Shown: positions 4,608 through 60,798, counted from the stretch's first letter. The stretch is DNA of 64,000 bases from Candidatus Uhrbacteria bacterium (GCA_018673485.1 JABHCP010000012.1:30393-94392); one strand, 5' to 3'. Notes: generated by a model not told the origin, from the letters alone. A program made the numbers and translations.

Positions 4608-5120
4608 TCAGGGGTTGATCTTGTAGACTAGTCCCCAGAAGCCGTTGGTGCGCACCATACCATTGAGGTGATGCGTCAGTCCGATGTGGCTCGGGTTTGC
4701 GACGTGACAGGTGTTGCTCCTGTACGTCTTGTTTCCTTCGTTGCGCAGGGCGGAGACGTTTGATGTCCCTCGCGCCCAGACCACGTGATCCCAGGTCAGG
4801 TCGTAGGTCTCAGGGACTTCGAACATCGGCTGGGCGGTGTAGAACGGGTACCTTTCCAGCCGTTCACCCTTGACGAGCATCGCTCCACGGATGACGTCTC
4901 GGAAGTTGACCGTTTCGTACACTTCTTCGCTGCCAACGAAGAAGGTGGCCTCTGGGTTTTCTGCGTCGAAGCTCAGCACCATGAAGATGCTGTTGGGAGC
5001 CTCGACTTCTTCCTGCGTGCAGGCCAAGGGGCCGCCGGCGTAGGCCGGGTTGGGGTTGGACACCGCGAATGCGGCCATGATGGCCAAGATCGCGAGGACG
5101 ACAGCGTTGGTGCGCTTCAT
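4608..5120 (-). CDS. Hypothetical secreted protein encoded in a high-GC locus
   Basis: MKRTNAVVLAILAIMAAFAVSNPNPAYAGG signal peptide; leader is CCCGCAAAG, hairpin (gacgga cccct ccgtc), GAAGGCG, ATG. Confidence 0.6.
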   Translation of the reverse strand: MKRTNAVVLAILAIMAAFAVSNPNPAYAGGPLACTQEEVEAPNSIFMVLSFDAENPEATFFVGSEEVYETVNFRDVIRGAMLVKGERLERYPFYTAQPMFEVPETYDLTWDHVVWARGTSNVSALRNEGNKTYRSNTCHVANPSHIGLTHHLNGMVRTNGFWGLVYKINP

Positions 5121-12090: not shown

Positions 12091-12119
12091 TTGACAAACT
12101 TGTCATTTTGTGCTATAGT
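12091..12119 (+). promoter_or_regulatory. Sigma70-like promoter TTGACA-17bp-TATAGT reading into a high-GC locus
   Basis: ttgacaaacttgtcattttgtgctatagt; exact consensus -35 with a 17-bp spacer. Confidence 0.45.
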
Positions 12120-12363
12120 ACTTCTTGTAAGATCAAGCAATTGATCCCTTGCAAACAACTTGAGAGAGCCCTAACTTCTGGGTAAAAGAAGTATCCATCA
12201 ACATCGCTATTGTGGCGTGTTGGTAGAAAGCCGGTTATCTCTCTTAATTAAGAAAGGTAGCCGGTTTTCTTTATAGGTGAGGTAGTCAGACCTGAATAGA
12301 CAATGTCTAAGTAGATCTGACCACCTCGACCACCACCACAAGCCCACCCGGGCTGGAGCCACC

Positions 12364-12444
12364 ATGAACACCATCCTCTCCCTGATCGCCGCCTTCACTT
12401 GCACCGCCGGCCCCGTCGCGCTGATCGCCAGCGTGATGATGTAG
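12364..12444 (+). CDS. Putative 26-aa hydrophobic peptide (MNTILSLIAAFTCTAGPVALIASVMM)
   Basis: Hairpin (agcccacccgggct), GGAGCCACC, ATG; followed by the hairpin cacctgattcgtcaggtg; resembles the signal peptide of the lipoprotein at 12681. Confidence 0.3.
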   Translation: MNTILSLIAAFTCTAGPVALIASVMM

Positions 12445-12680
12445 TCCTCGTGCTACATCGGCCATCTTCTCACCTGATTCGTCAGGTGAGCTACCCCCAA
12501 CCTTTGATCAAGTATCGAAGTTTGAGAGTAGCTCATAGCACTCCTCGAGCATAGGAAAGAGCGCACCTTACATATCTCTCACTCCACTTTTTCCTTTGCT
12601 CAAGGAGCGTATGCGAGTCGAATTTCTCGACCAACACGCAAGAATGACCCCCATCGCCTTCGGGCGAGAGTGAGAACATC

Positions 12681-13196
12681 ATGAACATGACCAACATCCT
12701 GCGCGTCGCCCTGTACTCCCTGATCGCCGCCCTGAGCCTGACCACCACCGGTTGCTTCGACCTGTCGAACGCTGGTGTGGACTGCTACTGGGACAGTGAG
12801 TCCGGCGCCCCCATCTGCGATGTGGGTGTGGGTACCGGCTACGGCAGTGGCAGCGGCAGCTACGAAGACACCGTCTGGGTGATGTGGGAGTCCTCCAAGC
12901 CAGAGCGTTTGACGGACTTCACCATGACGTGCACGTTCGATGACCGTGAGAACGAGAAGTTCTCCATCATCGCTGACGTCTATATCACCGACAGTTACTA
13001 CGTGGATGCCTATTTTCCGGGCGTGCCCAGCCACTTCGATGCAGTGTGCAGTGGTATGGCATACTTCAACGGAGTGGAGATCCCGTTGTTCTCCGGTGAG
13101 GTCCCGACCGGCGACGTCCTAGTCGTTCAGTGGGAAGATGAGCAAGTTGACAATTTCTGGGCTCGTAACAACGAGCTGGATATTGACTACAACTAG
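12681..13196 (+). CDS. Hypothetical lipoprotein encoded in a high-GC locus
   Basis: MNMTNILRVALYSLIAALSLTTTGC lipobox-like signal; hairpin (cgccttcgggcg) about 20 nt upstream of the ATG; GC about 58%. Confidence 0.55.
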   Translation: MNMTNILRVALYSLIAALSLTTTGCFDLSNAGVDCYWDSESGAPICDVGVGTGYGSGSGSYEDTVWVMWESSKPERLTDFTMTCTFDDRENEKFSIIADVYITDSYYVDAYFPGVPSHFDAVCSGMAYFNGVEIPLFSGEVPTGDVLVVQWEDEQVDNFWARNNELDIDYN

Positions 13197-13263
13197 CCTC
13201 ACCATCCAACCCCTCCTTCTCGACCCCCGCATGCCTAGCATCGCGGGGGTTCGACACGTCTAG

Positions 13264-13480: not shown

Positions 13481-13557
13481 TGGTGGACCCTACCGGGCTC
13501 GAACCGGTGACCTCTTGCCTGCCAGGCAAGCGCTCTAGCCAACTGAGCTAAGGGCCC
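13481..13557 (-). tRNA. tRNA-Ala (anticodon GGC), CCA encoded
   Basis: Manual fold: acceptor GGGCCCT/AGGGTCC with a G3:U70 pair; D arm GCTC/GAGC; anticodon loop CUGGCAG; T arm ACCGG-TTCGAGC-CCGGT; discriminator A. Confidence 0.85.
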
Positions 13558-13639: not shown

Positions 13640-14260
13640 ATATAGCAAAGAGCCGCCTGGCAGAGATTGCGAGGAGGCTCAAGGGTGCTCACACCGGCCG
13701 AGTAGGTCATGGCGCACGGCGATCGGTTTGGTGACCGATGTGGGCAGGGCGAACGTGTAGAATATGACCCGTACCAGGCCTTTTCGAAGTCCCACTCCCG
13801 GTTGGGTGTGATTTTTCAAGGCACAGGTCATAAGAGGGTGGCTGCGGAGCGGGTCATGGCCCTCGCTCACACACCTCCACGGCACTTGCAGTACGTCGCA
13901 TCGTTCGATTGCTCCCGGCCCGCACTAATGTTATGGGCTTTGGCGTCGATCGCGTCGTTTGGTAGCGTGGCCTGTTGAGGTGCTTAGGCTGGAGCTCACC
14001 GCTCCGCAGCCTGGTTTGAAAGAGGGGGTTCTCACGCGACGCGCTTCCTCCCTAGTGACTGCTCAGCGTGATTGCTGTGGTGGTACGACAGTTGCCGGAT
14101 CGTCGATCACCCGCCCCGAAAGCCCGGGACTTGCATTTGGACTCTTTCTAACCAAGATTGGTGGCCGTGAAAAGCAGCGTCGACCTGGCAGTCGATACAG
14201 TCCGAATTGCTCGAACCACACTGCGGACGGTCTGTCGCCCTCACGGCCATAGAATGAACT
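13640..14260. other. About 620 bp high-GC segment without a convincing ORF: candidate structured non-coding RNA or decayed foreign cassette
   Basis: GC about 60%, yet only short out-of-phase ORFs of 100 aa or less on either strand; RNase P and tmRNA hallmark motifs were looked for and not found. Confidence 0.3.
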
Positions 14261-17803: not shown

Positions 17804-18766
17804 ATGAAACATGAACTATTTAAAATTTCGATAGATGATTTAAACGACGCGGAGCTTGAGACTGAGCTTGTTTCTTTTTTATATTCAAATTCAACAAAAC
17901 TCATTGCGACACCAAATGCCGAGATGCTTGTTGATGCAATTCAGGATAATGGCAACCCCCCTGAATCCCCCCTTGCCCATTCGACAGGCTCAGGGCACCC
18001 TGAGGAATCGAAGGGTGGGAAGAGGGGAGGCGCATTTCGTGATGCGCTTTCGAATACAGATCTGAACTTGCCCGACACAGTCTCGATTCGGTTTGCGGTA
18101 TCTGCTTTGACTGATAATAGACTTAAGAATCGACACACGGGCGTTGATACACTGCAGAGCTTGATAGAACTTTGTGCAAGGGAAGGGAAGAGTGTTTTAT
18201 TCTTTGGAGGAAATGTCGAGACTCTAAAGCTTGCAAAAAAGAAAGTTGAAGGTAGTCTTCCGCAGACCCTCCTTCGTGAGGAGATGGGGCCAGTGATTAC
18301 ATCTACTCAGTATCAAGGAAGAGATAGAGACGGTTTTAGTATTTCGATTCTGGATCCTGGCGCTGTTGAGCTAGTTGACGATGGGGTTGTCATCGAAAGC
18401 TCGATGATGAATAGAATCAACAAAATCAAGCCAGACGTCATTGCGATCGCTTTGCCTCATAAAAAGCAGTTGGCATTCATGCGTCAATTTAAGGATGAGT
18501 TTCCAAGCGTAAAGATTATGATCGGTGTAGGGGGTGCGCTTGATATGATCAGTGGCAGATTAAAAAGGGCGCCAAAATGGATGCGTAGGACTGGCTTGGA
18601 ATGGCTGTGGCGTGTGTTGATAGAACCAAGCAGGATTGGTAGGATTCTAAAGGCGAGCGTTGCCTTTCCCGCACTGGTCACGATTGAAACAATCAAGCGC
18701 GGCAGGTTCATTAAGGCAGTTAAGAACACAGCTCCTGAGATCATTCGGCAGTTGAGTGGAAAGTAG
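17804..18766 (+). CDS. tagA: WecB/TagA/CpsF-family glycosyltransferase carrying an in-frame repeat-derived insertion
   Basis: C-terminal GGALDMISGRLKRAPKWMRRTGLEWLWRVLIEPSRIGR family signature; residues GNPPESPLAHSTGSGHPEESKGGKRGG are encoded by repeat R1 at 17951-18030. Confidence 0.75.
   Translation: MKHELFKISIDDLNDAELETELVSFLYSNSTKLIATPNAEMLVDAIQDNGNPPESPLAHSTGSGHPEESKGGKRGGAFRDALSNTDLNLPDTVSIRFAVSALTDNRLKNRHTGVDTLQSLIELCAREGKSVLFFGGNVETLKLAKKKVEGSLPQTLLREEMGPVITSTQYQGRDRDGFSISILDPGAVELVDDGVVIESSMMNRINKIKPDVIAIALPHKKQLAFMRQFKDEFPSVKIMIGVGGALDMISGRLKRAPKWMRRTGLEWLWRVLIEPSRIGRILKASVAFPALVTIETIKRGRFIKAVKNTAPEIIRQLSGK
17951..18030 (+). repeat. RPE-like palindromic repeat R1 (GGCAACCCCCC...CTCAGGGCACCCTGAG...GGGAAG.GGGAGG), intragenic in-frame copy
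   Basis: Near-identical copies at 18772-18851, 36417-36495 (reverse) and 38839-38920 (reverse). Confidence 0.8.
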
Positions 18767-18895: not shown

Positions 18896-20359
18896 ATGAC
18901 TCCAGCACGAACGCGTTTGGCACCTAGTCCGACAGGTTTTATTCACATCGGAACATTGCGTACGGCACTCTTTGATTATTTTTTAGCAAAGCAAACTGGC
19001 GGTCAGTTTGTTTTAAGAATCGAGGACACTGATCAGAGTAGGCTTGTGGAAGGTTCTTTGGAAAATTTACTCGAGACATTCAAGTCAGTCGGAATTGAGC
19101 CTGACGAGGGTCCGGTTTTGCAAGACGACGGATCAACTATCGAGAAAGGTGAATACGGTCCTTATGTTCAGTCAAAGCGATTGGATATTTACAAGCCATA
19201 CGTTGAGAAGCTAATTGAGCAAGGCGACGCGTACCAGTGTTTTTGTACAAAGGAACGACTTGATGAAATGAGAGAAAAGCAGCGAGCTACGAAGCAGACT
19301 CCAAAGTATGACCGAAAGTGTTGCGCACTAACTGCGGAAGAAGTGAAGGCAAAGATTGATGCAGGAGAATCATATGTAGTACGAATGAAGGTGCCAGAAG
19401 GTGAAACTATTTTTGAAGATATTGTTCGAAATTCGGTTAAGTTTCAAAATTTAGATGTAGACGATCAGGTAATTCTGAAGTCTGACGGTTTTCCGACTTA
19501 TCATTTGGCCGTCGTTGTTGACGATGCGCTCATGAAAATCTCGCACATCGTGCGTGGTGAGGAGTGGCTTTCATCAACTCCAAAGCATATTATGCTCTAC
19601 AAGATGTTGGGGTTTGAAATGCCGACTTTTGCTCACGTTCCGTTGCTTTTGAATCCAGACAAGACAAAGCTTTCTAAACGTCAGGGTGACGTTGCGGTTG
19701 AGGATTATCTTAAGAAGGGCTACCTCGTAGAAGCGCTGCTCAACTTTATCGGCACACTCGGATTTAATCCAACTGGAGACCGAGAGATTTATTCTTTCGA
19801 TGAGTTGGTGGAGATGTTTGATTTATCAAAGGTAAAAAAGAGTGGCGCGGTAATGAACATCGAAAAGCTCGACTGGATGAATAATCAGTATTTGAAAAAA
19901 ATGGAGGCCAAAGACCTAATTGAGGTTGCAAAGCCATTTGTGAGTATCGATCTTGAAAATGAAACGGTCGGCCGTGCTTTGATAATTGAACGCGATCGAA
20001 TCAATCGACTAGACGAGTTGCAAGAAAAACTCGAGCCTTATGTAGCTGAGTTTGCATACGACTCTGAACTCTTGATCTGGAAAAAGGCAGACGCAGCTGA
20101 CGCTAAGGCACAACTCGAAGGCGTTAAGAAGTTCGTTGAAACGTTAGAAGACGCAGCCTTTGTGAATGTTGAAGCGCTCGAGAGGGAAGTGCGCGCATAC
20201 ATCGAATCCAACGATCTGCAAAACGGAAACGTACTCTGGCCACTACGCGTAGCACTATCAGGTGCCGCAAAATCAGCCTCACCATTTGAGTTATTGTGGG
20301 TGTTTGGAAAAGAGAAGGGGATTGAGAAGATCGATAAAGCGATTGGGTTGCTCGCATAA
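18896..20359 (+). CDS. gltX: Glutamyl-tRNA synthetase
   Basis: RLAPSPTGFIHIGTLRTALFDY class I HIGH region and KLSKRQ (KMSKS-type) motif. Confidence 0.9.
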   Translation: MTPARTRLAPSPTGFIHIGTLRTALFDYFLAKQTGGQFVLRIEDTDQSRLVEGSLENLLETFKSVGIEPDEGPVLQDDGSTIEKGEYGPYVQSKRLDIYKPYVEKLIEQGDAYQCFCTKERLDEMREKQRATKQTPKYDRKCCALTAEEVKAKIDAGESYVVRMKVPEGETIFEDIVRNSVKFQNLDVDDQVILKSDGFPTYHLAVVVDDALMKISHIVRGEEWLSSTPKHIMLYKMLGFEMPTFAHVPLLLNPDKTKLSKRQGDVAVEDYLKKGYLVEALLNFIGTLGFNPTGDREIYSFDELVEMFDLSKVKKSGAVMNIEKLDWMNNQYLKKMEAKDLIEVAKPFVSIDLENETVGRALIIERDRINRLDELQEKLEPYVAEFAYDSELLIWKKADAADAKAQLEGVKKFVETLEDAAFVNVEALEREVRAYIESNDLQNGNVLWPLRVALSGAAKSASPFELLWVFGKEKGIEKIDKAIGLLA

Positions 20360-20411
20360 CTGACTTGAAAATAAAAAAAAGACAAGGCCGCCTTCACGGG
20401 CGGTCTTTGGG

Positions 20412-20440
20412 TTGACAGGTATTGATTTATACGCTATATT
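20412..20440 (+). promoter_or_regulatory. Sigma70-like promoter TTGACA-17bp-TATATT reading into a small high-GC gene
   Basis: ttgacaggtattgatttatacgctatatt, followed by hairpin (ctggcatgttgccag), then AAAGGAGG. Confidence 0.45.
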
Positions 20441-20482
20441 CCGAGGCTAATTTCCCTGGCATGTTGCCAGAAAGGAGGAAAA

Positions 20483-20737
20483 TTGGCTCAGTATCAAGAG
20501 ATCAGAACCGTGGCTGGAACTACCCTCCGCATTGGTGGGGTCGGCGGCAGTTACCTGTCTTTCGTTGAGACCGTGACAGAAGGGAATCTCAACGGACTCA
20601 TTACCAAGGGCTGGGAGCTCATCAAGGTCATCACACATTGCTCGGTCGAACACGACATGACTGCGGTTGCCTACGTCGTCGGCCGACCCCCCGGCGTTGA
20701 CCCTGACGGGGACAAAGCTCAAGGGGTCGAAGAATAA
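20483..20737 (+). CDS. Hypothetical 84-aa protein in a high-GC cassette (TTG start)
   Basis: AAAGGAGGA 7 nt upstream of the TTG start; GC about 58%; product MAQYQEIRTVAGTTLRIGGVGG... with no family recognised. Confidence 0.5.
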   Translation: MAQYQEIRTVAGTTLRIGGVGGSYLSFVETVTEGNLNGLITKGWELIKVITHCSVEHDMTAVAYVVGRPPGVDPDGDKAQGVEE

Positions 20738-20759
20738 GGGGTACCCCAACCCCGATCAC

Positions 20760-20795
20760 TGGACGCTCGCGCGTAACGCGGCGTCCTTTTTGCTT
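20760..20795 (+). terminator. GC-rich hairpin terminator (ggacgctcgcgcgtaacgcggcgtcc then TTTTT)
   Basis: Stem-loop plus T-run ending the high-GC cassette. Confidence 0.55.
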
Positions 20796-20800
20796 TGATA

Positions 20801-20832
20801 CTACATTCTACTTTCTACATTCTACCTTCTGC
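20801..20832. repeat. Heptad tandem repeat family R3 (CTACNTT)n / (GTAGAAN)n, copy upstream of the M23 peptidase gene
   Basis: ctacattctactttctacattctaccttctgc, followed by GCGATATAAT; inverted partner at 22110-22141. Confidence 0.65.
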
Positions 20833-20873
20833 GATATAATAAACTAAGACTTATTATAAAAAGCTACTTCAAT

Positions 20874-20911
20874 GGCAACCCTCTCCAGCTCCCCCCTGGG
20901 AAGGGGGAGGG
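20874..20911 (+). repeat. Short form of repeat R1 (GGCAACC-N-CTCCCCC-loop-GGGGGAGGG hairpin), which supplies the GGAGG ribosome-binding site of the next gene
   Basis: ggcaaccctctccagctcccccctgggaagggggaggg, then tagaact-ATG. Confidence 0.7.
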
Positions 20912-20918
20912 TAGAACT

Positions 20919-22103
20919 ATGAATTTATATAAACGCATCACATCTGCGATGTTGGTTTTAACTACCGTGCTGAGCTTGTCGGGTGCGGGTTTTGTTTTTG
21001 CGCAGACGGAAGACCTAAACGAGTTGCAAGATCAGATCAGTGTTAGGAAGACGCAGATTGATCAAATTAATGACAAGATCGATGGATATCGTGAAAAGGT
21101 GAATCAGTATGCTTCGGAGGCGGCTAGTTTAGAGACTGACATTGCGATGATCGAGAACCAGGTTGCACTGACTGAGCTTGATATTGAGGCAACGCAGATC
21201 GAGATTGAGGCGCAGGAACTTCAAGTTCAATTGTTGGATCAACAAATCAAGGAACAAGAGGTAGAGATCGCGGTTCAGAAAGAAATTTTGAAGGAAATGG
21301 TATTTGAGTTGAATAAGAATGATGAGGTTGGATTTATTGAGGTGCTGTTTAGCTCGAGTGACTTTAATGAGCTTTTCGCTGAAGTTGAAAATTTGGAAAC
21401 AATAAATGCGGATCTTCAGGATGCATTGGATCAAACCAAGGCTACAAAGGACCGTTTAGAGAATAATAAAGCAGATCAGGAAGATAGGCTGGAAGACCTT
21501 GTGTTACTTGAGGGCGAGCTTGAGTCACAGATGGCTACATACGAGCAACAAGCAAATGCCAAGGATGTTTTACTTGCCTACACAGAAGAGTCAGAGGCGC
21601 AGTATAAGGTTCTGTTAAGCGAGATGCGACAAGAGCAACAGTATATCTCAACACAGATTGCAGCATTGCAGTCTGAGATGGATAGCGCTATAACGTCGAG
21701 TGATGAATATGGAGGCGAGACAATTTTCACTTGGCCAATGGATGGTGTGATAACCGCGACTTTCCATGACCCGACATATCCGTTTCGACATCTGTGGGAG
21801 CACAGTGGGCTTGATATTGCGACGACTGCTGGCACACCGATAGTTGCAGCGGCGCCAGGTTACGTGGCATGGAGCAGATACGGCTCTTCATACGGAAATT
21901 ACGTTATGATCATTCACACTAATGGCTACGCAACACTTTACGCACACATGAGTAGTGCTGCGGTCAGTGCTGATCAGTATGTGAGTAGGGGAGACGTCAT
22001 TGGTTACGAGGGAACAACTGGATTTTCAACTGGACCTCACCTGCACTTTGAGATTCGAGAGAATGGAATCCCAGTCGATCCACAATTGTATTTAGTTAAT
22101 TAA
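20919..22103 (+). CDS. M23 family metallopeptidase with N-terminal coiled coil (EnvC-like)
   Basis: Signal peptide, a long Q/E-rich coiled coil, and C-terminal HSGLDIA...GNYVMIIHTNGYATLYAHM...GPHLHFEI M23 motifs. Confidence 0.8.
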   Translation: MNLYKRITSAMLVLTTVLSLSGAGFVFAQTEDLNELQDQISVRKTQIDQINDKIDGYREKVNQYASEAASLETDIAMIENQVALTELDIEATQIEIEAQELQVQLLDQQIKEQEVEIAVQKEILKEMVFELNKNDEVGFIEVLFSSSDFNELFAEVENLETINADLQDALDQTKATKDRLENNKADQEDRLEDLVLLEGELESQMATYEQQANAKDVLLAYTEESEAQYKVLLSEMRQEQQYISTQIAALQSEMDSAITSSDEYGGETIFTWPMDGVITATFHDPTYPFRHLWEHSGLDIATTAGTPIVAAAPGYVAWSRYGSSYGNYVMIIHTNGYATLYAHMSSAAVSADQYVSRGDVIGYEGTTGFSTGPHLHFEIRENGIPVDPQLYLVN

Positions 22104-22109
22104 TGAAAT

Positions 22110-22141
22110 GCAGAAGGTAGAAAGTAGAAGGTAGAATGTAG
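22110..22141. repeat. R3 heptad repeat, inverted partner of 20801-20832
   Basis: gcagaaggtagaaagtagaaggtagaatgtag is the reverse complement of the upstream copy with 2 mismatches. Confidence 0.65.
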
Positions 22142-22957: not shown

Positions 22958-23839
22958 CTACTTTACGTAAACTCGATTACCAAATCTCAAATCGATATAT
23001 TCAAGTTCATGTACTGTCTCACCATACTCGTCGATTATGAGCTGTAAGTTATCAAATTGTTCTTGTGAGTCCCCTACCCCGTTGATATAGATGTCAACAC
23101 CAAGGGTCGATCTAACTGTAAGCCAGACTTCATCCTTGTGATCAATGATATAAGAAATAGGTGTGATAGATGTTTGGCGCAGCATCAGATCGAATTCCTC
23201 GATGGTTGATAGTAGTATCGGAGTTACGATTTGCGTTTCTAGCTCGATAGCATGGTTCTCAAGGTCCCAGATTGTGAAAACAGTAGACTGTAAGCTTTGA
23301 GATGGTGCAACCTGAGTGTTGATTTGTTGCTCAACTTCAGCGTGCTCTAGCTCGGATAACTCACGGATTGCAATTCCATCAGAGTCTAGGAAGAACATTC
23401 TATTGTTCGTGACCCATACAGCGCGCGTGATGCGCTCAGAGGCTTGTATGCTGAGCGTTCTACCACTACGCGATACATCTATCATCTTGAGCTGGAAGTC
23501 ATCTTTGAGAGCCTCTTGGAGCTTTTCGGTACGCACAAACCATATGTGTTTACCGGGCAGTACACCTAGGACTGGATTGCTGACAAACTGCCAAGTTGAT
23601 TGCTCTATAGCATCGGGATAAATAGTAACCAAGCCTTCAATCTCAATCGTTTTGATCTGCAGCCAAGGAATCACCATTAGCCCCCAAGTGATGAGAATTA
23701 AAATAAATATCGCCACCGGAGCAATCAAATACTTTTTCCACGAAGACTTATTTTTTTTATGCGCAAACAGCGGATTCTCATATTGAGATCTTTTGTATCT
23801 GGTAGCCTGATGAGATTTAAGAAAGTTACGCTTTTTCAT
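22958..23839 (-). CDS. ftsQ: Cell-division protein FtsQ/DivIB-like (single transmembrane helix, POTRA-like domain)
   Basis: Basic N-terminal tail, one helix (LIAPVAIFILILITWGLMVI), periplasmic beta-rich domain; topology-based call. Confidence 0.45.
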   Translation of the reverse strand: MKKRNFLKSHQATRYKRSQYENPLFAHKKNKSSWKKYLIAPVAIFILILITWGLMVIPWLQIKTIEIEGLVTIYPDAIEQSTWQFVSNPVLGVLPGKHIWFVRTEKLQEALKDDFQLKMIDVSRSGRTLSIQASERITRAVWVTNNRMFFLDSDGIAIRELSELEHAEVEQQINTQVAPSQSLQSTVFTIWDLENHAIELETQIVTPILLSTIEEFDLMLRQTSITPISYIIDHKDEVWLTVRSTLGVDIYINGVGDSQEQFDNLQLIIDEYGETVHELEYIDLRFGNRVYVK

Positions 23840-23846
23840 AGTTCGG

Positions 23847-23954
23847 TCCCCCTCCTTCCCAAGGAGGGGTTAGGGGTGGTTGCCGTTTGATCTAATTCGA
23901 TCGAATTCAGTTCACCGGCAACCCCCTCCAGCTCCCCCTTGGGAAGTGGGAGGG
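23847..23954. repeat. Inverted pair of short R1 elements (23847-23884 reverse, 23917-23954 forward) flanking a 32-bp spacer that contains the AATTCGATCGAATT palindrome
   Basis: Read on the minus strand, the left copy supplies GGAGGGGG 8 nt upstream of the ftsQ-like ATG. Confidence 0.7.
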
Positions 23955-23955
23955 T

Positions 23956-28505: not shown

Positions 28506-28510
28506 AGAAA

Positions 28511-28548
28511 TAGGTAGTAGTAAGTACGAAGTAGCTAGTAGAAAATAG
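28511..28548. repeat. R3 heptad repeat directly upstream of the lysS start codon
   Basis: taggtagtagtaagtacgaagtagctagtagaaaatag; the minus strand reads CTAC...CTTACTACTACCTATTTCT-ATG. Confidence 0.6.
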
Positions 28549-35852: not shown

Positions 35853-38828
35853 TTAAAACGAGCTGTCTTCGCAGATGTCTTTGAAGTCGCAGTATTGGCA
35901 GTGGAATCCGGGGGTTGGGCTGAAGTCACTGGCTTGCATCTTCTCTACTGCTTTAATTACTTCATCGATTAGTTTTTGCTTTTCTTTATCTGTTGGTTCA
36001 AAACTCACTGAAGAGTTGTCTTCCAGATAGTGGTAGGTTGCTTTCGTGATCTTGAGTGGTGGATCGAAACACCGTTCACACGCTAGCGCATAAAGCACGA
36101 GTTGCTTGCGTTCAGGCCAGCTGAGCTTATCCTTTGGTTTTCCAGTTTTATAGTCTACGATCTCATATCCATCATCTAGCTTATCGATCCGATCGATTCT
36201 TCCCTTGGTGGAGATGTCACCAATTTTGAGGGTGAAGTCCTTTTCGATGAATGCGATCTTTGGTTTTGTTTCGGTAAGAATATGGTAGTACTCAGACATC
36301 GTGTCCTTACCCTTTTGATGATACTCAACACGTGTCTCAGCGTCAGGATACCACTCATCAATCCAAGCGCTTTCATAAAGCTCAAGTAATCGACTCTCTG
36401 GCGGAATCTCATCTAATCCTCCCTCCTTCCCACCCTTCGATTCCTCAGGGTGCCCTGAGCTTGTCGAATGGGCAAGGGGGGATAGAGGGGGGTTGCCTTC
36501 CACATACTCACGGGCGAATTGTTCGAGTGCGTTGTGCATTGTCTTACCAAAACTCATTTGATAGCGACCAAACACAGGTACGCGCAAGATGTGGGCATAT
36601 TTGTATTGTAATGGACAGCTTGAGAATGCAGCAATCTGCGTGAAGCTGATGTTGCTCGGTAGCTGATGGTCTACTGTAGCTTTCTCATCGATTGGATCGG
36701 CCTGAGGCTCAAGCGATTTGTTTTGACCAGAATCTTGCGCTTCAATCTCAAGTTCTTTAACAAACCGTGATGGTTTGCGTTTGCGGGTACCACCATAGTC
36801 GTCAGCTGAGAAAAGATAGAGATGTTCTTTGGCTCGAGTCATGGCAACATAGAGCAGTCGTCGTTCTTCCTCGATATGTTCATCACGATCTGCGTCGATT
36901 TGAGTGTTGATGAGTCCCTCTGGAATTCCGATTGGACTACTGCGACGTTGTGTTGGGAATCGTTGCTCAACCATGTTTACTAAAAAGACGAATCGAAATT
37001 CTAATCCCTTTGATGCGTGAATAGTCATTATCTGAACCACGTCAGGGCCAGCGGTTGGATCCCCTGAGAGCGCACCGGATTCGCCACTTGATCGCTCATG
37101 TTCGAATTCTTCTAAAAAGTGATGAAGAGTTTTGTCGTCATTTGAATATTCAAAGCGCTTAACGCGTTCAAAGAACTTTTGCAAAAGTCCGTTCTCTTCA
37201 ATTTGTTGTGGTTCTGGCAGTTGCTGTGCCGTGGCGATGATCCCAGTTTGTTTTACGATCTCTACAAATAATTCACTACTTGGTTTTCGTTTTGATAGAG
37301 CCCGCAGTTCTGTCAGCGCTTCGATTATCTCGGTGATTCTTTCGCGACTTGCATCAGATATATCATCGGTTTGCTCTAAAACTTCAAAAAGCGAGAGGCC
37401 CTTCTTTTTACTGTGCATTGAAAGCTTGGCAATGTCGATTTCTGAAATTCCAAGCTCTGGATGGCTTAGAATTCTGTAAATCGAAGGACTGTCATACGGG
37501 AGGTCAATTACGCGCATCCAAGCCAAGCAATCAAGTATTACCGGCTTTGTGTATAGCCCTGAGAGGGCCAGGAAGCGGTATGGCATGCGAATCTGGTCCA
37601 TGATCTCTACAAATGGCTCAGCATGCGAATTTGCGCGAACTAGAATGGCAAAGTCACTCCAATTGCACTCGTGTTCTTTTTGCAGATCAACAATTCTTGA
37701 GATTACTCCATGAAGCTCACTTTGCAGATCATCGGCATGGATATGGTCGACTTTCCCCTCTATTCCAAGGTTTGGCAACAGCTCCTTATTGATTTGCTCG
37801 CGATGTTCAAGTCTGTGTGGATTATTGTTCTGGATTACGTTATACGCGTGGTGCAATACTTTTTCTGAGCTTCTGTAGTTTTGATTGAGAACAATCTGCT
37901 TTGCGTCTGAAAAGTCTTTTGAGAAATTCAAGATATTGGAAAGTGATGCTCCGCGGAATTTGTAAATTGATTGATCGTCGTCCCCCACTACCGTGATATT
38001 GAAAGGTTCTTTAAGCAAGAGTTTGATGAGTTCGTATTGTGCAGAGTTAGTATCCTGAAATTCATCAACAAGCACGAACTTAAATTGTTCCTGATACTGC
38101 CTAGCAATCCGAGGACGCGATCGAAGAAGCTCAATCGTATAACTAACAAGATCTGCAAAATCAAGCGCACTATTTTCAAGCAAGATTTGTTGGTAGGTGT
38201 GATACGCATTAGCGAGCTCATTGATACGCGCATTTTCCTGCTCTTGTTCTTCCGGACTAATCTCATCTCCCTCCTTCCCAAGGGGGGATTCAGGGGGGTT
38301 GCCGTCATTCAAATCAAGATCCTCAGCAAATTTCAAATACTGCTCTGGCGTGATCATCTCATCTTTAATTCGTGAGAAGTGCTGCAAGAGCGCGCGGATA
38401 AACTTAGTTGGATTTGATTTTGGTTTGTAGTAATCAAGTTCAAAACGATCAAAGTTTTTCCTGATCAATAAGTAGGTATCAATCTCATCGAGAAGCGTAA
38501 ATTCATGCGGCACGCCAATATCAAGCGCATGCTGGCGCAAAATCCGCTCACAAAATGCATGAAAGGTTGAGATCCACATGTCCACGTAGCCGATTGGGAG
38601 TAATTGATCGACTCGCTCTTCCATCTCCGTTGCCGCTTTCTCTGTAAAAGTGAGTGCCAAAATCTCCTCAGGCTTCGCCTTCCCCTGCTCAATCAACCAG
38701 GCAATCCGCTGCGTTATAGCAGTAGTCTTCCCAGTCCCCGCCCCCGCAATAATCATAAGCGGCCCCCGATCATGCGTAACAGCCTCCAACTGCGCCTCAT
38801 TTAGATTTTCGAGTAGGTTTTGATTCAT
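35853..38828 (-). CDS. UvrD/PcrA-family helicase fused to a C-terminal PD-(D/E)XK Cas4/AddB-like nuclease with a 4-Cys cluster; carries two in-frame repeat-derived insertions
   Basis: Walker A IIAGAGTGKTTAI; C-terminal CPLQYKY...DRIDKLDDGYEIVDYKTGK...CQYCDFKDIC; encoded peptides GNPPLSPLAHSTSSGHPEESKGGKEGG and GNPPESPLGKEGDE come from repeat R1. Confidence 0.8.
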   Translation of the reverse strand: MNQNLLENLNEAQLEAVTHDRGPLMIIAGAGTGKTTAITQRIAWLIEQGKAKPEEILALTFTEKAATEMEERVDQLLPIGYVDMWISTFHAFCERILRQHALDIGVPHEFTLLDEIDTYLLIRKNFDRFELDYYKPKSNPTKFIRALLQHFSRIKDEMITPEQYLKFAEDLDLNDGNPPESPLGKEGDEISPEEQEQENARINELANAYHTYQQILLENSALDFADLVSYTIELLRSRPRIARQYQEQFKFVLVDEFQDTNSAQYELIKLLLKEPFNITVVGDDDQSIYKFRGASLSNILNFSKDFSDAKQIVLNQNYRSSEKVLHHAYNVIQNNNPHRLEHREQINKELLPNLGIEGKVDHIHADDLQSELHGVISRIVDLQKEHECNWSDFAILVRANSHAEPFVEIMDQIRMPYRFLALSGLYTKPVILDCLAWMRVIDLPYDSPSIYRILSHPELGISEIDIAKLSMHSKKKGLSLFEVLEQTDDISDASRERITEIIEALTELRALSKRKPSSELFVEIVKQTGIIATAQQLPEPQQIEENGLLQKFFERVKRFEYSNDDKTLHHFLEEFEHERSSGESGALSGDPTAGPDVVQIMTIHASKGLEFRFVFLVNMVEQRFPTQRRSSPIGIPEGLINTQIDADRDEHIEEERRLLYVAMTRAKEHLYLFSADDYGGTRKRKPSRFVKELEIEAQDSGQNKSLEPQADPIDEKATVDHQLPSNISFTQIAAFSSCPLQYKYAHILRVPVFGRYQMSFGKTMHNALEQFAREYVEGNPPLSPLAHSTSSGHPEESKGGKEGGLDEIPPESRLLELYESAWIDEWYPDAETRVEYHQKGKDTMSEYYHILTETKPKIAFIEKDFTLKIGDISTKGRIDRIDKLDDGYEIVDYKTGKPKDKLSWPERKQLVLYALACERCFDPPLKITKATYHYLEDNSSVSFEPTDKEKQKLIDEVIKAVEKMQASDFSPTPGFHCQYCDFKDICEDSSF
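36417..36495 (-). repeat. Repeat R1, in-frame intragenic copy (reverse orientation on the window plus strand)
   Basis: Its reverse complement is nearly identical to 17951-18030. Confidence 0.8.
38268..38304 (-). repeat. Short form of R1 (termini only), in-frame intragenic copy
   Basis: Reverse complement is ggcaacccccctgaatccccccttgggaaggaggg. Confidence 0.7.
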
Positions 38829-38838
38829 ATGCTTATAT

Positions 38839-38920
38839 CCTCCCCCTTCCCACCCATCGATATAACTCAGGGTGCCCTGAGCGGAGTCGAATGGGCAAGG
38901 GGGAGTTAGAGGGGGTTGCC
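38839..38920 (-). repeat. Repeat R1, intergenic copy that supplies the GGAGG ribosome-binding site of the helicase gene
   Basis: Minus strand reads ...gggaagggggaggatataagcat-ATG. Confidence 0.8.
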
Positions 38921-38962
38921 TTTAATCTCATTCGATCGAATTATTGGTCTCATTTTACCATA

Positions 38963-38991
38963 ATTGACAAAAGGCCTTTTTAATGATAGAT
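38963..38991 (+). promoter_or_regulatory. Sigma70-like promoter TTGACA-17bp-TAGATT for high-GC cassette A
   Basis: ttgacaaaaggcctttttaatgatagatt. Confidence 0.45.
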
Positions 38992-39057
38992 TTAATCGTC
39001 TTCCAGATACCAACTCGCCCGCAAGGGCATGGGCTTAAAGCCCGAAGGAGGCGTAAG

Positions 39058-39729
39058 ATGCCTCAGTGTACCCCCGAAGGTGCGATCGATCTCGTGGACT
39101 TTATTGGCCACACTCACAAGATGCTCGGTCTCATCGACCCAGTCGGGTTGCCCGAGACCGCCTCGCGTATCGATGACGTTGCACATATCCTGGCTGAGAA
39201 CGGCTGGGAGAATGTGACAGAGATGTTCGAGCGTGCTGTCTTGGATCCAAGTGTGCGTCCGATCGCGCATAATATCGAGATGATGAATACGCACATCGGC
39301 CACAATGGCTACAGTGGCACCTACATGCGGTTGACCAGCGGTGATGGCCGATTCCGTGTGGTGATCGCTCCAAGTGACGTATGTGGTATCGAGACCGGAC
39401 AATGGTGGCTCGCTACTGTGACCATGTACGATGTGTCGGGTCCCTCCAGGTCGGCTGCCGCGTACGCTCACTGTTTCGGCGCCCACTACTGGTACGGCCC
39501 TACACCGCATCAGGTCCGTTGCGAAGCCAATCCTGGTTGCATGGCGATGAAGCTTGAGATCTCGCCGTGGCATACCGATGTGGTCATAGGTAGTGAGGGG
39601 CTCTTCGACCGATTGCGCTCCGACAACTATGGCCGCGAGATTCGCATCATGGCCCGCTGTCTCGGCCGCAACCACTTCGCTCGCAACGGGCCGAATTTCG
39701 ACTTCCTCAGGAATATCGAGTTCGAGTAG
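39058..39729 (+). CDS. Hypothetical protein, high-GC cassette paralogue A (224 aa)
   Basis: Leader is CCCGCAAGG, hairpin (gggcttaaagccc), GAAGGAGGCG, ATG; paralogous to 39930-40577 (shared YMRLTSGDGRFRV / YLRIDSADGRIRV and PHQVRCEANPG / PHQVHCEPNPG). Confidence 0.55.
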   Translation: MPQCTPEGAIDLVDFIGHTHKMLGLIDPVGLPETASRIDDVAHILAENGWENVTEMFERAVLDPSVRPIAHNIEMMNTHIGHNGYSGTYMRLTSGDGRFRVVIAPSDVCGIETGQWWLATVTMYDVSGPSRSAAAYAHCFGAHYWYGPTPHQVRCEANPGCMAMKLEISPWHTDVVIGSEGLFDRLRSDNYGREIRIMARCLGRNHFARNGPNFDFLRNIEFE

Positions 39730-39824
39730 TGATCGCGACTCGCCCCCCCCCGTACGTCTCGAACCCCCACCTCGTGGGGGTTCTTCGTTTTCAGCAAAAA
39801 CATTGCTAATTCTGGCCAAAAGCC

Positions 39825-39853
39825 TTGACAAAAGGGCTTTTTTCTGCTATTGT
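39825..39853 (+). promoter_or_regulatory. Sigma70-like promoter TTGACA-17bp-TATTGT for cassette B (a duplicated copy of the cassette A promoter context)
   Basis: ttgacaaaagggcttttttctgctattgt. Confidence 0.45.
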
Positions 39854-39929
39854 TAGCAGTTCAAAAAGAACACCTGTGTGTGAAACTTCGCCCGTAAGGG
39901 TATGGGCCTAAAGCCCAAAGGAGGCTGTA

Positions 39930-40577
39930 ATGCCTCAGACCGAAGAAAGTCAGGAGTGCATGGGCGTGAGCGAGTTCGTCAACGCTGTTCACATCATGCT
40001 CGCTCTCCCCAAGCTCGATCTGCCTGAGGACGCCAAGAGCGTCGGTGAGATCCAGGAGGTCCTGCTGGAGAACGGCTGGATGGATATCGCGAAACGCCTC
40101 CGACTCACCGTACGTAAGCACGGTGAGTCGGAGCCCGACTACCGGGGTCCGTACCTGCGTATCGACAGCGCCGATGGGCGTATCCGCGTCACGATCAGTG
40201 ACCGGTGCCCTCGCCCGGAAACCAATGACTGGCAGAGGTGGTACGGTGATGTGATGCTGTTCGATATCTCCGACAGCCACCCGTGGCGCCATGATGACCA
40301 GATCCGCAAGTTCGGTTGTCACATGTGGCAGGACGGCCAGCACCCTCACCAGGTCCACTGCGAGCCCAACCCGGGCCAGCGGATCATGTACCTGAGCTTC
40401 TGGCCCAGTAACGTCGTGGCCGTGCCCGACCATGATGTGCAGGATCACTTCAAGTGGGCCCGCTTCCGCAGTCAGTGGGGGCTCTACATGGACCGAATTG
40501 TGAACGTTGTGGGTGAGTACTTCAACGAAGGTGACTCCTACACCGAGGCGTTCCTGAAGTGCACCTCGGTCGAGTAG
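39930..40577 (+). CDS. Hypothetical protein, high-GC cassette paralogue B (215 aa)
   Basis: Leader is CCCGTAAGG, hairpin (gggcctaaagccc), AAAGGAGGC, ATG; followed by hairpin gaacccccacctcgtgggggttc, the same hairpin found after paralogue A. Confidence 0.55.
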   Translation: MPQTEESQECMGVSEFVNAVHIMLALPKLDLPEDAKSVGEIQEVLLENGWMDIAKRLRLTVRKHGESEPDYRGPYLRIDSADGRIRVTISDRCPRPETNDWQRWYGDVMLFDISDSHPWRHDDQIRKFGCHMWQDGQHPHQVHCEPNPGQRIMYLSFWPSNVVAVPDHDVQDHFKWARFRSQWGLYMDRIVNVVGEYFNEGDSYTEAFLKCTSVE

Positions 40578-40636
40578 CTTGCCTCTGACCGATCTTATCT
40601 TGAACCCCCACCTCGTGGGGGTTCTGTGCATCCAAA

Positions 40637-51783: not shown

Positions 51784-51857
51784 TGGCGCCGATGGCAGGA
51801 ATTGAACCTGCGACCCCCTGCTCGACGGCAGGTGCTCTATCACTGAGCTACATCGGC
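51784..51857 (-). tRNA. tRNA-Asp(GUC)-like gene with an apparent 6-nt anticodon loop
   Basis: Acceptor GCCGATG/CATCGGC, D arm GCTC/GAGC, T arm GCAGG-TTCAATT-CCTGC, discriminator G, CCA encoded; anticodon stem CCTGC/GCAGG encloses CGTCGA. Confidence 0.55.
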
Positions 51858-51871
51858 TAAGGAGTGAGAAA

Positions 51872-51984
51872 TGGCTCTGGGGGCTGGATTTGAACCAACG
51901 ACTTCCTGCGTGATGGTAGGTGAACTAACCAGTTGTTCTACCGGCTTGGCAAACAGGCGAGCTAACCAACTGCTCTACCCCAGA
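51872..51984 (-). tRNA. 113-nt tRNA-like gene: canonical acceptor, D and T arms, with about 36 extra nt in the anticodon region (candidate tRNA-Gly(GCC) carrying an insertion or intron, or a disrupted tRNA)
   Basis: 5' TCTGGGG-TA-GAGC-AGTTGGTTA-GCTC-G-CCTGT-TTGCCA[36 nt]C-GCAGG-AAGTC-GTTGG-TTCAAAT-CCAGC-CCCCAGA-G-CCA; removing 51911-51946 gives a 77-nt cloverleaf with loop UUGCCAC. Confidence 0.45.
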
Positions 51985-53919: not shown

Positions 53920-53927
53920 AGGAGATA

Positions 53928-53965
53928 TAGGTAGTAGTAAGTAGAAAGTAGAGAGTAGAATGTAG
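53928..53965. repeat. R3 heptad repeat directly upstream of the cvpA-like start codon
   Basis: taggtagtagtaagtagaaagtagagagtagaatgtag. Confidence 0.6.
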
Positions 53966-53969
53966 TGGT

Positions 53970-54017
53970 GAGTTCGATCGAATCCCCCTCCTTTTTAAGG
54001 AGGGGTTAGGGGTGGTT
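53970..54017. repeat. Short R1-like hairpin element (ccccctcctttttaaggaggggttaggggtggtt) with TTCGATCGAA flank
   Basis: Variant of 23847-23884. Confidence 0.55.
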
Positions 54018-54041
54018 ATGTAATAGTTCCCAATTTTCGAT

Positions 54042-55472
54042 CTAATTGTCTCTTCGTGGAAATAGCGGATCGCCGGTTAGTATTTTGTCACCATCGTAGC
54101 GTTTGATGATCTCATCAGCTGCTTCGGGGATTATCGGCTTAAGAGATTGTCCAATGAATCGGATGTTTTCGGCTAGTTCGCTCAGTACTTCTTTTGCTGC
54201 AGCTTCATCTTCTTTGACGAGCTTAAATGGAGCTTTGATTTCGATTAGTTCGTTTGATTCTGAAACGATCTCAAAAACAAGATCGATATATTTTTTGAAA
54301 TCATAGTCTTTCATCGAAATTTCTAATTGAGTTTTTAACTCGCCCCAGTTCTTTTCGATCTTGTCTAGTTTCCCGTCAAAATACTTGTCAGACATAGCCG
54401 CAACTCGGCTAACAAGATTTCCAAGTTGGTTTGCAAGTTCTGCGTAGCGTTCTTCCATTCTTGGCATTGCAAAGTCGCCATCGTCGTGTGAAGGAATCTC
54501 ACGAAGTAAGTAATATCGCACAGCGTCAGTTCCGAACTCTTTTACGAGCTCAAATGGGTCAACGACGTTGCCTAAACTCTTACTCATCTTTTTTCCGTCG
54601 GAAGTGATGAACCCATGAATGAAAACTTGTGTTGATGGTTTCAATCCGGCTGACATTAGCATTGCCTGCCACATTGCAGTTTGCTGTCGCAGATTGTCCT
54701 TTCCTGCCACTTGTACTCCTGGCCAGAACTTAAAGTCACCAGACTCATCTGGCCAACCTAGAGTTGAGACGTAGTTCACAAGTGCATCAAACCATACATA
54801 CATTACGTGGTCCTCGTCTCCGGGAACTGAAACACCCCAAGGCATTTTTTCCTTCATTCGTGAAATGCTGAAGTCGCGAAGACCAGCGTCGACGAAATTC
54901 TTTATCTCGTTAAAGCGATATTCTGGCACAACAAAGTCTGGTTGCGCCGCATAAAGCTCTTGCAATGGTTTTTGATATTTTGAAAATGCAAAGAAGTAGT
55001 TTTCTTCATCGCGTAATTCAAGCTCCATGTTTGGATGGACTGGACACTTGCCTTCCTCGAGCTCTGAGTCTTGTTTTTCAAGCTCACAACCAATACAGTA
55101 TTTTGTTTGGTACCGATCTTTGTAAATGTCTCCACTTGATAGACATCGGTTCCAGAATTCTTGCGCTGCTTTTTTGTGATCAGCATTGCTGGTGCGAATG
55201 AAGTTTGTGTAAGTAAGATTCAATGCATCTTTGAGATTATCAAATCGTGCCGCATATTCATCAACGTAAGCTTGTGTGTCCTTTCCTTCTGTTGCTGCTT
55301 TTTCGAAAATCTTCTGCCCGTGCTCATCAGTCCCAGTATTAAATAGCACCTCGTGCCCACTAAGCGCATGAAAACGAGCAAGCGTATCTGCTTGAATAAT
55401 CTCGAGTGCGAATCCGATATGAGGGTCGGAGTTTACGTATGGGAGTGTCGTTGTGATGTAGTATTTTGGCAT
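54042..55472 (-). CDS. metG: Methionyl-tRNA synthetase
   Basis: YITTTLPYVNSDPHIGFALE (HIGH-region variant) and KMSKSLGNVV; start taken at MPKYY. Confidence 0.9.
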   Translation of the reverse strand: MPKYYITTTLPYVNSDPHIGFALEIIQADTLARFHALSGHEVLFNTGTDEHGQKIFEKAATEGKDTQAYVDEYAARFDNLKDALNLTYTNFIRTSNADHKKAAQEFWNRCLSSGDIYKDRYQTKYCIGCELEKQDSELEEGKCPVHPNMELELRDEENYFFAFSKYQKPLQELYAAQPDFVVPEYRFNEIKNFVDAGLRDFSISRMKEKMPWGVSVPGDEDHVMYVWFDALVNYVSTLGWPDESGDFKFWPGVQVAGKDNLRQQTAMWQAMLMSAGLKPSTQVFIHGFITSDGKKMSKSLGNVVDPFELVKEFGTDAVRYYLLREIPSHDDGDFAMPRMEERYAELANQLGNLVSRVAAMSDKYFDGKLDKIEKNWGELKTQLEISMKDYDFKKYIDLVFEIVSESNELIEIKAPFKLVKEDEAAAKEVLSELAENIRFIGQSLKPIIPEAADEIIKRYDGDKILTGDPLFPRRDN

Positions 55473-55478
55473 ATCGCA

Positions 55479-55510
55479 GGTAGTAGTAAGTAGGGAGTAG
55501 ATAGTAGATG
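55479..55510. repeat. R3 heptad repeat directly upstream of the metG start codon
   Basis: ggtagtagtaagtagggagtagatagtagatg; the minus strand reads ...CTTACTACTACCTGCGAT-ATG. Confidence 0.6.
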
Positions 55511-55522
55511 AGGCCTTCGATA

Positions 55523-60715: not shown

Positions 60716-60723
60716 AGTGAATG

Positions 60724-60755
60724 AATTATATCGCAGAAGGTAGAATGTAGAAAGT
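60724..60755. repeat. R3 heptad repeat upstream of the glutaredoxin-like gene
   Basis: gcagaaggtagaatgtagaaagtagaatgtag; the minus strand reads CTACATTCTACTTTCTACATTCTACCTTCTGCGATATAAT..ATG, identical in register to the 20801 copy. Confidence 0.65.
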
Positions 60756-60798
60756 AGAATGTAGCTCGATTTCGTTCAAAACTGCCTACCGCCCCCCC

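Follow-up and report, generated by a model that had tools for sequence, protein, structure and literature searches.

A probably acquired small-protein gene with its own expression signals between gltX and an M23 peptidase gene of a Candidatus Uhrbacteria bacterium

In a stretch of 64,000 nucleotides (nt) from a Candidatus Uhrbacteria bacterium (GCA_018673485.1, JABHCP010000012.1:30393-94392; the whole of this stretch is hereafter the window), a short gene of high guanine-plus-cytosine (GC) content, coding for a protein of 84 amino acids (aa), lies at 20412-20795 between gltX and an M23 peptidase gene. The following elements could be delineated on this segment:

20412-20440, plus strand: sigma-70-type promoter TTGACA-17-TATATT, with 11 of 12 consensus positions and a 17-nt spacing
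20456-20470, plus strand: stem-loop CTGGCA-TGT-TGCCAG in the 5' untranslated region (UTR), with a 6-bp stem, -7.1 kcal/mol
20471-20479, plus strand: ribosome-binding site AAAGGAGGA, with an AGGAGG core (20473-20478) that ends 4 nt ahead of the TTG
20483-20737, plus strand: open reading frame (ORF) of 84 codons, with a TTG start at 20483 and a TAA stop at 20735-20737
20761-20791, plus strand: intrinsic terminator, a 10-bp GC-rich stem GGACGCTCGCGCGTAACGCGGCGTCC (20761-20786) followed by TTTTTGCTTT, with the T5 run at 20787-20791

A sequence-only reading of the window had described a promoter, a hairpin, a ribosome-binding site, a TTG-initiated ORF and a terminator here, and each was found where that reading had placed it. 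By sequence, the segment has the hallmarks of a sigma-70 monocistronic unit, namely hexamers at a spacing of 16-18 nt and a GC-rich hairpin followed by a U-run. We consider it likely that 20412-20791 represents a complete monocistronic unit that was acquired horizontally by a Candidatus Uhrbacteria-like bacterium and inserted in the spacer between gltX and the M23 gene; the conclusions at the level of the gene itself range, in our estimate, from likely to very likely. What is new is a rare small-protein family; otherwise the unit is of a known kind, not a new system, and is a fairly ordinary horizontally acquired gene.

Across 19500-22000 the top promoter-like site was TTGACA-17-TATATT at 20412-20440. 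Sites with at least 11 of 12 matches to the promoter consensus number 8 in the window when both strands are counted, versus 1.28 +/- 1.0 expected from dinucleotide-model simulations, and because of this roughly six-fold enrichment over chance the promoter is probably real. The predicted transcription start lies near 20447. For the stem-loop in the leader, we estimated that a perfect 6-bp stem should be encountered in about 40 nt roughly 6% of the time. Its TGGCA-N3-TGCCA core at 20456-20470 is the sole perfect copy in the window, and allowing up to one mismatch yields 3 copies versus 1.85 expected, i.e. no enrichment. The minimum-free-energy fold of the leader also pairs its 5' end with the start-codon region, a pairing without statistical support. 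A superficial likeness of TGGCA-N3-TGCCA to a sigma-54 promoter was considered and ruled out, as its GG and GC elements do not have a 10-nt spacing. At the 3' end, the terminator stem has an energy of -16.8 kcal/mol and the surrounding region a fold z-score of -3.26.

The TTG at 20483 is the earliest possible start past the upstream in-frame stop. The ORF has a GC content of 56.5% versus 43.9% for the window, with values of 0.64/0.42/0.64 at the first, second and third codon positions (GC1, GC2 and GC3). As a native comparison set we used 29 confident native genes, which provide 1070 windows of 85 codons; the GC (56.5%) and GC3 (63.5%) of the ORF lie above all of these, the respective native maxima being 53.7% and 60.0%. 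The locus, including both of its junctions, is 100% identical at the DNA level in several independent metagenome assemblies, which rules out a chimeric assembly. The identical protein also occurs on a 262-kb JGI contig with the gene order of the window and on short contigs of other samples, and a scan of metagenome contigs recovered one more exact copy. Three identical environmental copies have no substitutions between them, and hence carry no signal of selection.

Searched exhaustively with phmmer, 1.84 billion cluster representatives yielded ten distant homologs of the product, all of 61-111 aa, with e-values from 6e-8 to 8e-5. The family amounts to 11 clusters at 50% identity among these representatives and, as judged from this search, is very rare. 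A word-indexed protein search gave nothing beyond the identical protein, a profile search recovered members of the family and no annotated relative, and the alignment of the whole family proved too divergent to be used in the locus finder. The alignment revealed a common N-terminus of the form M-x-x-Y-x-x-I-x-x-V-A-G, which supports the TTG as the start codon, and a core of the form LN..L..GWELI.IITH.S..HD.TA.A.V.G.P. G43, S54 and D58 are invariant across the family, and N37, W44, H52 and T60 nearly so. One homolog (P0003) seemingly starts late; an upstream ATG restores its N-terminus as MPQYKMVAG, and a 66-aa member of the same cluster concurs with this start. The sense frame is open in 9 of 9 loci despite a gene GC ranging from 32% to 61% and a GC3 ranging from 0.25 to 0.77. 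By this comparative measure, an open sense frame over such a wide range of GC, together with an antisense frame that has stops in 7 of 8 homolog loci, is the mark of a sequence selected as a protein, and not as an RNA or for the opposite strand. Given that the homologs conserve the frame, the N-terminus and the core motif, the 84-aa TTG ORF is, on comparative grounds, a genuine protein-coding gene, as the sequence-only reading had held.

The surroundings of the gene comprise the following features:

18896-20359, plus strand: gltX (glutamyl-tRNA synthetase), the native upstream neighbor, a 487-aa ORF, whose counterpart on the identical contig matches the Pfam families tRNA-synt_1c and Anticodon_2
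20385-20406, plus strand: hairpin terminator of gltX, AGGCCGCC-TTCA-CGGGCGGTCT and then TTTGGG, with an A-run ahead of it, -14.6 kcal/mol, z = -2.55
20801-20840, plus strand: M23 promoter region, CTACATTCTAC repeats and then CTGCGATATAAT (20830-20840), with a -10 box at 20835-20840
20919-22103, plus strand: M23 peptidase gene (PcsB-like), the native downstream neighbor

The gene order DUF2238-WecG-gltX-M23 is kept in 17 related loci. The GltX protein of the window shares 85% identity with its counterpart in the closest relative (L009) and 78% with the GltX of a Candidatus Uhrbacteria metagenome-assembled genome (MAG), and the next-best genomes are again MAGs of Uhrbacteria or the Patescibacteria group. 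Several of the relatives were deposited as 'uncultured Gammaproteobacteria', though GltX identity and gene order group them with the Uhrbacteria. In 16 of the 17 related loci, with GltX identities of 51-78%, the spacer between gltX and the M23 gene spans 0 to about 110 bp, without any remnant of the 84-aa gene, and holds little beyond a CTGnTATAAT-like -10 box; in the window it measures 559 bp. This bears out the earlier description of a standalone unit between the two genes, and marks it as an insertion relative to the 16 related genomes. The gltX hairpin terminator is likewise missing in relatives without the insertion. In another relative (L010), CTTCTGCGCTATAAT corresponds to the M23 promoter region CTACATTCTAC/CTGCGATATAAT of the window, with CTGCGCTATAAT in place of the CTGCGATATAAT box. 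Since this native M23 promoter box persists downstream, the added block would extend from about 20360 to 20800 and consist of the gltX terminator and the complete 84-aa unit. The closest relative carries a different insert of 3.4 kb at the same junction, which encodes (L009 5466-8702) an extracytoplasmic function (ECF)-type sigma factor of 291 aa, followed by a proline-rich protein of 786 aa, with up to 65% GC and no Pfam match, that may be an anti-sigma-like partner of the sigma factor.

No homolog of the 84-aa protein was found in the GTDB species representatives, and no relatives were found in phage or plasmid records or among IMG/VR viral contigs; the scan of metagenome contigs yielded only two distant loci besides the further exact copies. 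Each homolog stands alone among housekeeping genes in a neighborhood of its own, and both a promoter-like site and a hairpin terminator accompany it. Taken together, the break in synteny, the distribution of the homologs and the anomalous GC3 support a recent horizontal acquisition of the gene, as far as comparative sequence data can indicate, and the donor was probably another Patescibacterium of higher GC. Two other classes of element were considered for this unit and set aside. An integron gene cassette does not fit an element with its own 11/12 promoter, a 3' hairpin and T-run instead of an attC-like imperfect palindrome, and no integrase nearby. A toxin-antitoxin module, in which two small genes lie side by side and are transcribed together, does not fit a unit with only one ORF from promoter to terminator; the HigB/helix-turn-helix (HTH) pair that lies beside one homolog (in locus L074) is divergently oriented and is not conserved elsewhere.

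The sequence-only reading had further proposed that the unit shares an identical cassette syntax with other foreign loci in the window. We checked this in the GC-rich loci with promoters at 38964, 39825 and 5241 (minus strand), and noted the same order of elements as in the 84-aa locus, namely a promoter, a stem-loop by the ribosome-binding site, an ORF and a hairpin terminator. The first two of these correspond to paralogous genes (39058-39729 and 39930-40577), each of which has TTGACA-17-(TAGATT or TATTGT), a pair of small stem-loops that adjoin AGGAGG, an ATG as its start codon and the same terminator GAACCCCCACCTCGTGGGGGTTC. These tandem GC-rich ORFans (window 38964-40625) code for proteins of 223 and 215 aa, and their leaders are near-identical, with the form CGCCCG(C/T)AAGGG(C/T)ATGGGC(T/C)TAAAGCCC(G/A)AAGGAGG. 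The third, a minus-strand gene (4608-5120), is preceded by TTGACA-17-TATTCT, a stem-loop GACGGACCCCTCCGTC, GGAAGG and an ATG. None of the products of the loci checked matches Pfam. Thus, the order of the elements is indeed common to the GC-rich loci, but their sequences are not homologous except in the case of the two paralogs, and the promoter type is also found in native genes: native aspS, greA and a tRNA gene have promoters as good as those of the foreign loci. By this comparison the sigma-70-type promoter is not distinctive of the foreign loci. A further GC-rich locus was observed at 12091-13260, with an 11/12 promoter (12091-12119), a leader of about 245 nt and a terminator at its end; it contains a hydrophobic mini-ORF of 26 aa (12365-12445, MNTILSLIAAFTCTAGPVALIASVMM) and then a predicted lipoprotein of 171 aa (12681-13196, ...LTTTGC...).

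The ribosome-binding sites show a different picture from the promoters. Most native ORF starts (40 of 49) have no motif resembling a Shine-Dalgarno (SD) sequence within 20 nt, a few have AAGGTGT, and just three native genes have GGAGG, which they obtain through a repeated GGGAAGGGGGAGG element, versus a perfect AGGAGG in the 84-aa gene and the two paralogs. A comparable SD contrast between accessory and native genes was noted around several homologs in other Patescibacteria loci. From the sequence features compared here, the 84-aa gene and other GC-rich loci differ from native genes in their strong ribosome-binding site and their high GC. As to the leader, the closest homolog (P0002), which lies in L074 and not next to gltX, has GGGTTGACAGG at its -35 position, as in the window, and its stem-loop CAGTGGCA-TGG-TGCCATTG has the same TGGCA-N3-TGCCA core at the matching relative position of the 5' UTR. 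This is suggestive of the promoter and leader traveling with the gene, and is no more than suggestive because this homolog alone shares the features.

Repeats were also observed in the intergenic leaders of the window. A family of the form GGCAACCCCC...CCCC(T/C)TGGGAAGGGGGAGGG occurs at 20868-20912, 23911-23955, 2371-2415, 23839-23883, 38258-38302, 38886-38922 and 53975-54019, and supplies the only strong GGAGG ahead of native genes (M23, 22958-23839 and 35853-38828). Short tandem repeats of the GTAGAA(A/T)GTAGAA type occur in intergenic regions at 20801-20840, 22110-22141, 28506-28548, 53923-53965, 55472-55514 and 60719-60764; at the first of these, the repeats (CTACATTCTAC, plus strand) abut the CTGCGATATAAT -10 box, and the type may represent a lineage-specific promoter-upstream element.

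The product has 84 residues, a mass of 8.9 kDa and an isoelectric point (pI) of 4.8. No signal peptide or transmembrane segment was detected in it, the maximum hydropathy over 19 residues being 0.97, and given this pI and the want of a hydrophobic segment we infer that it is cytoplasmic. The structure prediction and remote-homology search that the sequence-only reading had called for provided a confident model, the ten distant homologs described above and a weak link to DUF4177. An AlphaFold2 model built with the 11-sequence alignment (mean predicted local distance difference test score, pLDDT, 83.7) places four strands at residues 6-20, 23-29, 45-54 and 59-68, with a helix (34-41) between the second and the third and an acidic tail of low confidence after the last; the protein is confidently predicted as a β-β-α-β-β domain (residues 5-68) with a disordered acidic tail. 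PHROGs gave no usable match for the window protein, the best e-value reached by a profile search among PDB sequences was no lower than 0.25, and in PADLOC-DB the window protein was unmatched, while other members had two isolated chance-level matches (E = 0.015 and 0.057).

Three independent weak signals connect this family to DUF4177 (PF13783). The Pfam model is matched by 3 of the 11 family members, P0010 over its full length (3-66 vs 2-65/65; 21.0 bits, E = 4e-4) and two others with 15.6-15.7 bits. In hhalign, the family profile pairs with the DUF4177 protein PEG 446 with a 68% probability over the LN..GWEL core. In Foldseek searches against BFVD, the model retrieved a phage DUF4177 domain-containing protein (A0A8S5LRN8; probability 1.00, TMt 0.70, TMq 0.48, root mean square deviation 2.0 A, with a weak E = 0.05), the sole match of note in the PDB and BFVD libraries. 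The core motif of DUF4177, LN..G..GWELV at the helix-strand junction, is present in the window protein as LNGLITKGWELIKV, which aligns with LNNYGKNGWELVGV of PEG 446. A search with P0010, the member nearest to DUF4177, retrieved only itself, and so provided no transitive bridge to that family. These signals weakly suggest that the product is a remote relative of DUF4177 (YjzH-like) and not a member of it. The NCBIfam model NF053529 (Sp36 family) is also matched weakly over the core by 5 of the 11 members (best E = 1.3e-4); the window protein scores 14.3 bits (E = 0.029) against a cut-off of 50 bits, and does not belong to that family. Among the proteins with these domains, PEG 446 of Clostridium tyrobutyricum (66 aa) was antibacterial as a recombinant product and has been claimed to be bacteriocin-like (PMC11322243), YjzH of B. 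subtilis was a hit in an RNA-interactome study (bioRxiv 10.1101/2025.03.21.644579), DUF4177 genes in Streptomyces are in synteny with whiB-type genes (PMC13118837) and sP36 of Methanosarcina mazei is a hexamer whose action consists purely in binding to AmtB1 and GlnK1 (PMC10714827).

GC-rich intergenic regions in AT-rich genomes are often structured non-coding RNAs, and the segment could be read as one of these, with the 84-codon ORF as a by-product of its high GC. High GC does leave long ORFs on both strands here, and a fold z-score of -3.0 was obtained for 20447-20795 on the minus strand; yet much of this value comes from the terminator palindromes, and the plus strand (z = -1.5 only) does no better than shuffles. 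Moreover, Rfam was unmatched at the gathering threshold as well as at E <= 10, the GC1/2/3 pattern is coding-like, the protein model is confident and the homologs keep residues and frame over the whole span of gene GC, and we regard a non-coding RNA as very unlikely. The earlier reading had conceded that a longer ATG-initiated ORF in another frame would be the better candidate for the real gene, and there is none; the sole longer ORF is a 100-aa antisense TTG ORF (20447-20749, minus strand). It has no stop in the window copy and its frame is open also in one homolog locus (L003), but it is not conserved, being interrupted by 1-11 stops in 7 of 8 homolog loci, and no promoter or SD sequence lies ahead of its start, which is just downstream of the sense terminator hairpin. 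As the homologs were all found with the sense product, the notion that the antisense ORF is the real gene appears scarcely credible. With respect to the product, a secreted bacteriocin-like peptide is conceivable from the antibacterial activity of PEG 446, with which the window protein aligns over the LN..GWEL core. However, beyond the missing export signals, its Gly-Gly at 18-19 sits in the turn of a predicted β-hairpin and is not conserved, and no transporter, immunity or processing gene was found nearby in the window or in the homolog loci. Typical bacteriocins are also cationic, whereas this product is acidic, and we assign such a role a very low probability.

A further alternative is that the gene is native, vertically inherited and lost from this junction in the relatives, its GC being set by amino-acid content or selection. 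Its promoter is of the native type, and in some homologs the gene GC is near the genome GC (38% vs 39% in L076 and 53% vs 50% in L007). On the other hand, vertical inheritance would have to accommodate the 16 relatives with short spacers and no remnant, the unrelated cargo in the sister genome and the want of a homolog in any GTDB species representative. The GC3 of 0.64 falls outside all native windows and is not explained by amino-acid content, and the other GC-rich ORFan loci of the window are equally anomalous. All told, we consider a native origin improbable. Several observations nevertheless weigh against an acquired unit with a DUF4177-like product, or against parts of that picture. The homologs are confined to Patescibacteria-like contigs, two of them labelled Candidatus Paceibacterota, as would also be expected of an old native gene lost by the relatives; no donor of the gene was identified; and no terminal repeats, target-site duplications or mobility genes were found, while repeats at the flanks, whether direct or inverted, did not exceed chance matches of 8-14 nt. 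There is no conserved gene neighbor across the homolog loci, so that context gives no functional hint. The 5' stem-loop taken alone is within chance (5' UTR fold z = -1.1), and the leader features are common to just 1 of 8 homolog loci. Similarly, the window protein has no Pfam match even at E <= 10, no family member reaches the 25-bit gathering threshold of PF13783, Foldseek against PDB produced weak ACT-domain and KCTD-like noise (best E 0.14) and the phage match itself has a weak e-value.

Under our preferred reading of a horizontally acquired monocistronic unit, the sigma-70 promoter would drive a monocistronic mRNA some 345 nt long, beginning near 20447 and ending near 20791, with a leader of 36 nt whose small stem-loop lies directly ahead of AGGAGG. 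The TTG start combined with a strong SD sequence would allow moderate translation of the 84-residue protein, and the hairpin and T-run would end the transcript at about 20791, sparing the native M23 promoter; the insertion leaves the signals of its neighbors undisturbed. The stem-loop might stabilize the mRNA or modulate access to the ribosome-binding site; alternatively, the palindrome could act as DNA, serving as an operator to which a dimeric repressor binds. In view of its small size and its paucity of catalytic features, the product is unlikely to be an enzyme; it could serve, possibly in oligomeric form, as a small adaptor or regulator that binds another macromolecule, with the family-specific polar cluster of the β3-β4 hairpin (His52, Ser54, Asp58 and Thr60) as the binding surface. 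Such a role as a cytoplasmic binding or adaptor protein, which is prompted by the polar residues on one hairpin, the acidic tail and the weak kinship to sP36 and DUF4177, is a tentative proposal by analogy that we consider possible but doubtful. At a more speculative level, the gene might be a minimal example of portable self-sufficient modules (a consensus sigma-70 promoter, a leader stem-loop, AGGAGG, a GC-rich ORFan and a terminator) that move among Patescibacteria into the short housekeeping spacers of mostly SD-less genomes, its product being a new DUF4177-related adaptor, perhaps for an episymbiotic lifestyle or against phages. This would fit with the promoter and leader being shared with L074 in another context and with the gltX-M23 junction being a recurrent landing site, and we hold it to be unlikely as it stands.

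These results are of interest on three counts. A rare and apparently Patescibacteria-specific family with a predicted fold and a link to DUF4177 provides a handle for annotating unnamed sequences. The 16 empty sites and the sister genome with a different insert make this a clean, datable gene gain in a reduced Patescibacteria genome. The SD contrast bears on translation initiation in uncultured bacteria and on which foreign genes are expressible on arrival.

Some further features of the window were recorded in the course of this analysis. A segment of about 620 bp with about 59% GC (13640-14260) is flanked by tRNA-Ala (13481-13557) and clpB, both on the minus strand. It is unmatched in Rfam, and on the identical JGI contig no gene is annotated in it; the fold z-scores are -4.0 for its minus strand and -0.6 for its plus strand. 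A decayed foreign gene and a structured non-coding RNA are both conceivable here. An 80-nt repeat occurs at 17951-18030 and 36418-36497, its two copies being 94% complementary, inside WecG (17804-18766) and a 991-aa ORF (35853-38828) respectively. The WecG proteins of relatives are about 40 aa shorter than that of the window, and the sequence pattern suggests in-frame insertion of the element into genes, reminiscent of the Rickettsia palindromic elements. Rfam also detects a 110-nt tRNA at 51875-51984, missed by ARAGORN, that may carry an intron; for the adjacent tRNA at 51784-51857, ARAGORN left the anticodon undetermined, with two bases ('tc').

When compared with known systems, the unit resembles horizontally acquired genomic islets (ORFan genes) in its atypical composition and codon usage, in interrupting synteny, in its restriction to a single species and in the presence of other cargo in the sister genome. 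It differs from them in having no mobility signature in the form of an integrase, a tRNA target or a direct or terminal inverted repeat, and in being only about 440 bp long with full expression signals. The leaders of ompA and aprE have 5' stem-loops beside the ribosome-binding site that act as mRNA stabilizers. A short stable stem-loop directly upstream of a strong SD sequence is likewise seen here and at the other GC-rich loci, but in the window it lies about 9 nt from the predicted 5' end and not at it; the stabilizing role is a proposal in this case, and TGGCA-N3-TGCCA could equally be a repressor operator. With DUF4177, the family shares a size of 55-110 aa, the occurrence as standalone genes and the helix-to-strand motif LN..(G/L)..GWEL(V/I).(V/I). 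Unlike DUF4177, which is described as having a single strand and a long helix (PMC11322243), the window protein is predicted to have a long N-terminal β-hairpin (residues 6-29), and its family has a polar cluster of its own, TH.S..HD.T, on the last two strands and was recovered from Patescibacteria-like contigs only. Members of the Sp36 family come from archaea and actinobacteria, the score of the window protein is far under its cut-off and amtB or glnK were not seen near any homolog; sP36 is nonetheless alike in being a small cytoplasmic protein, of about 60 aa, and offers a working model for the function of such a domain.

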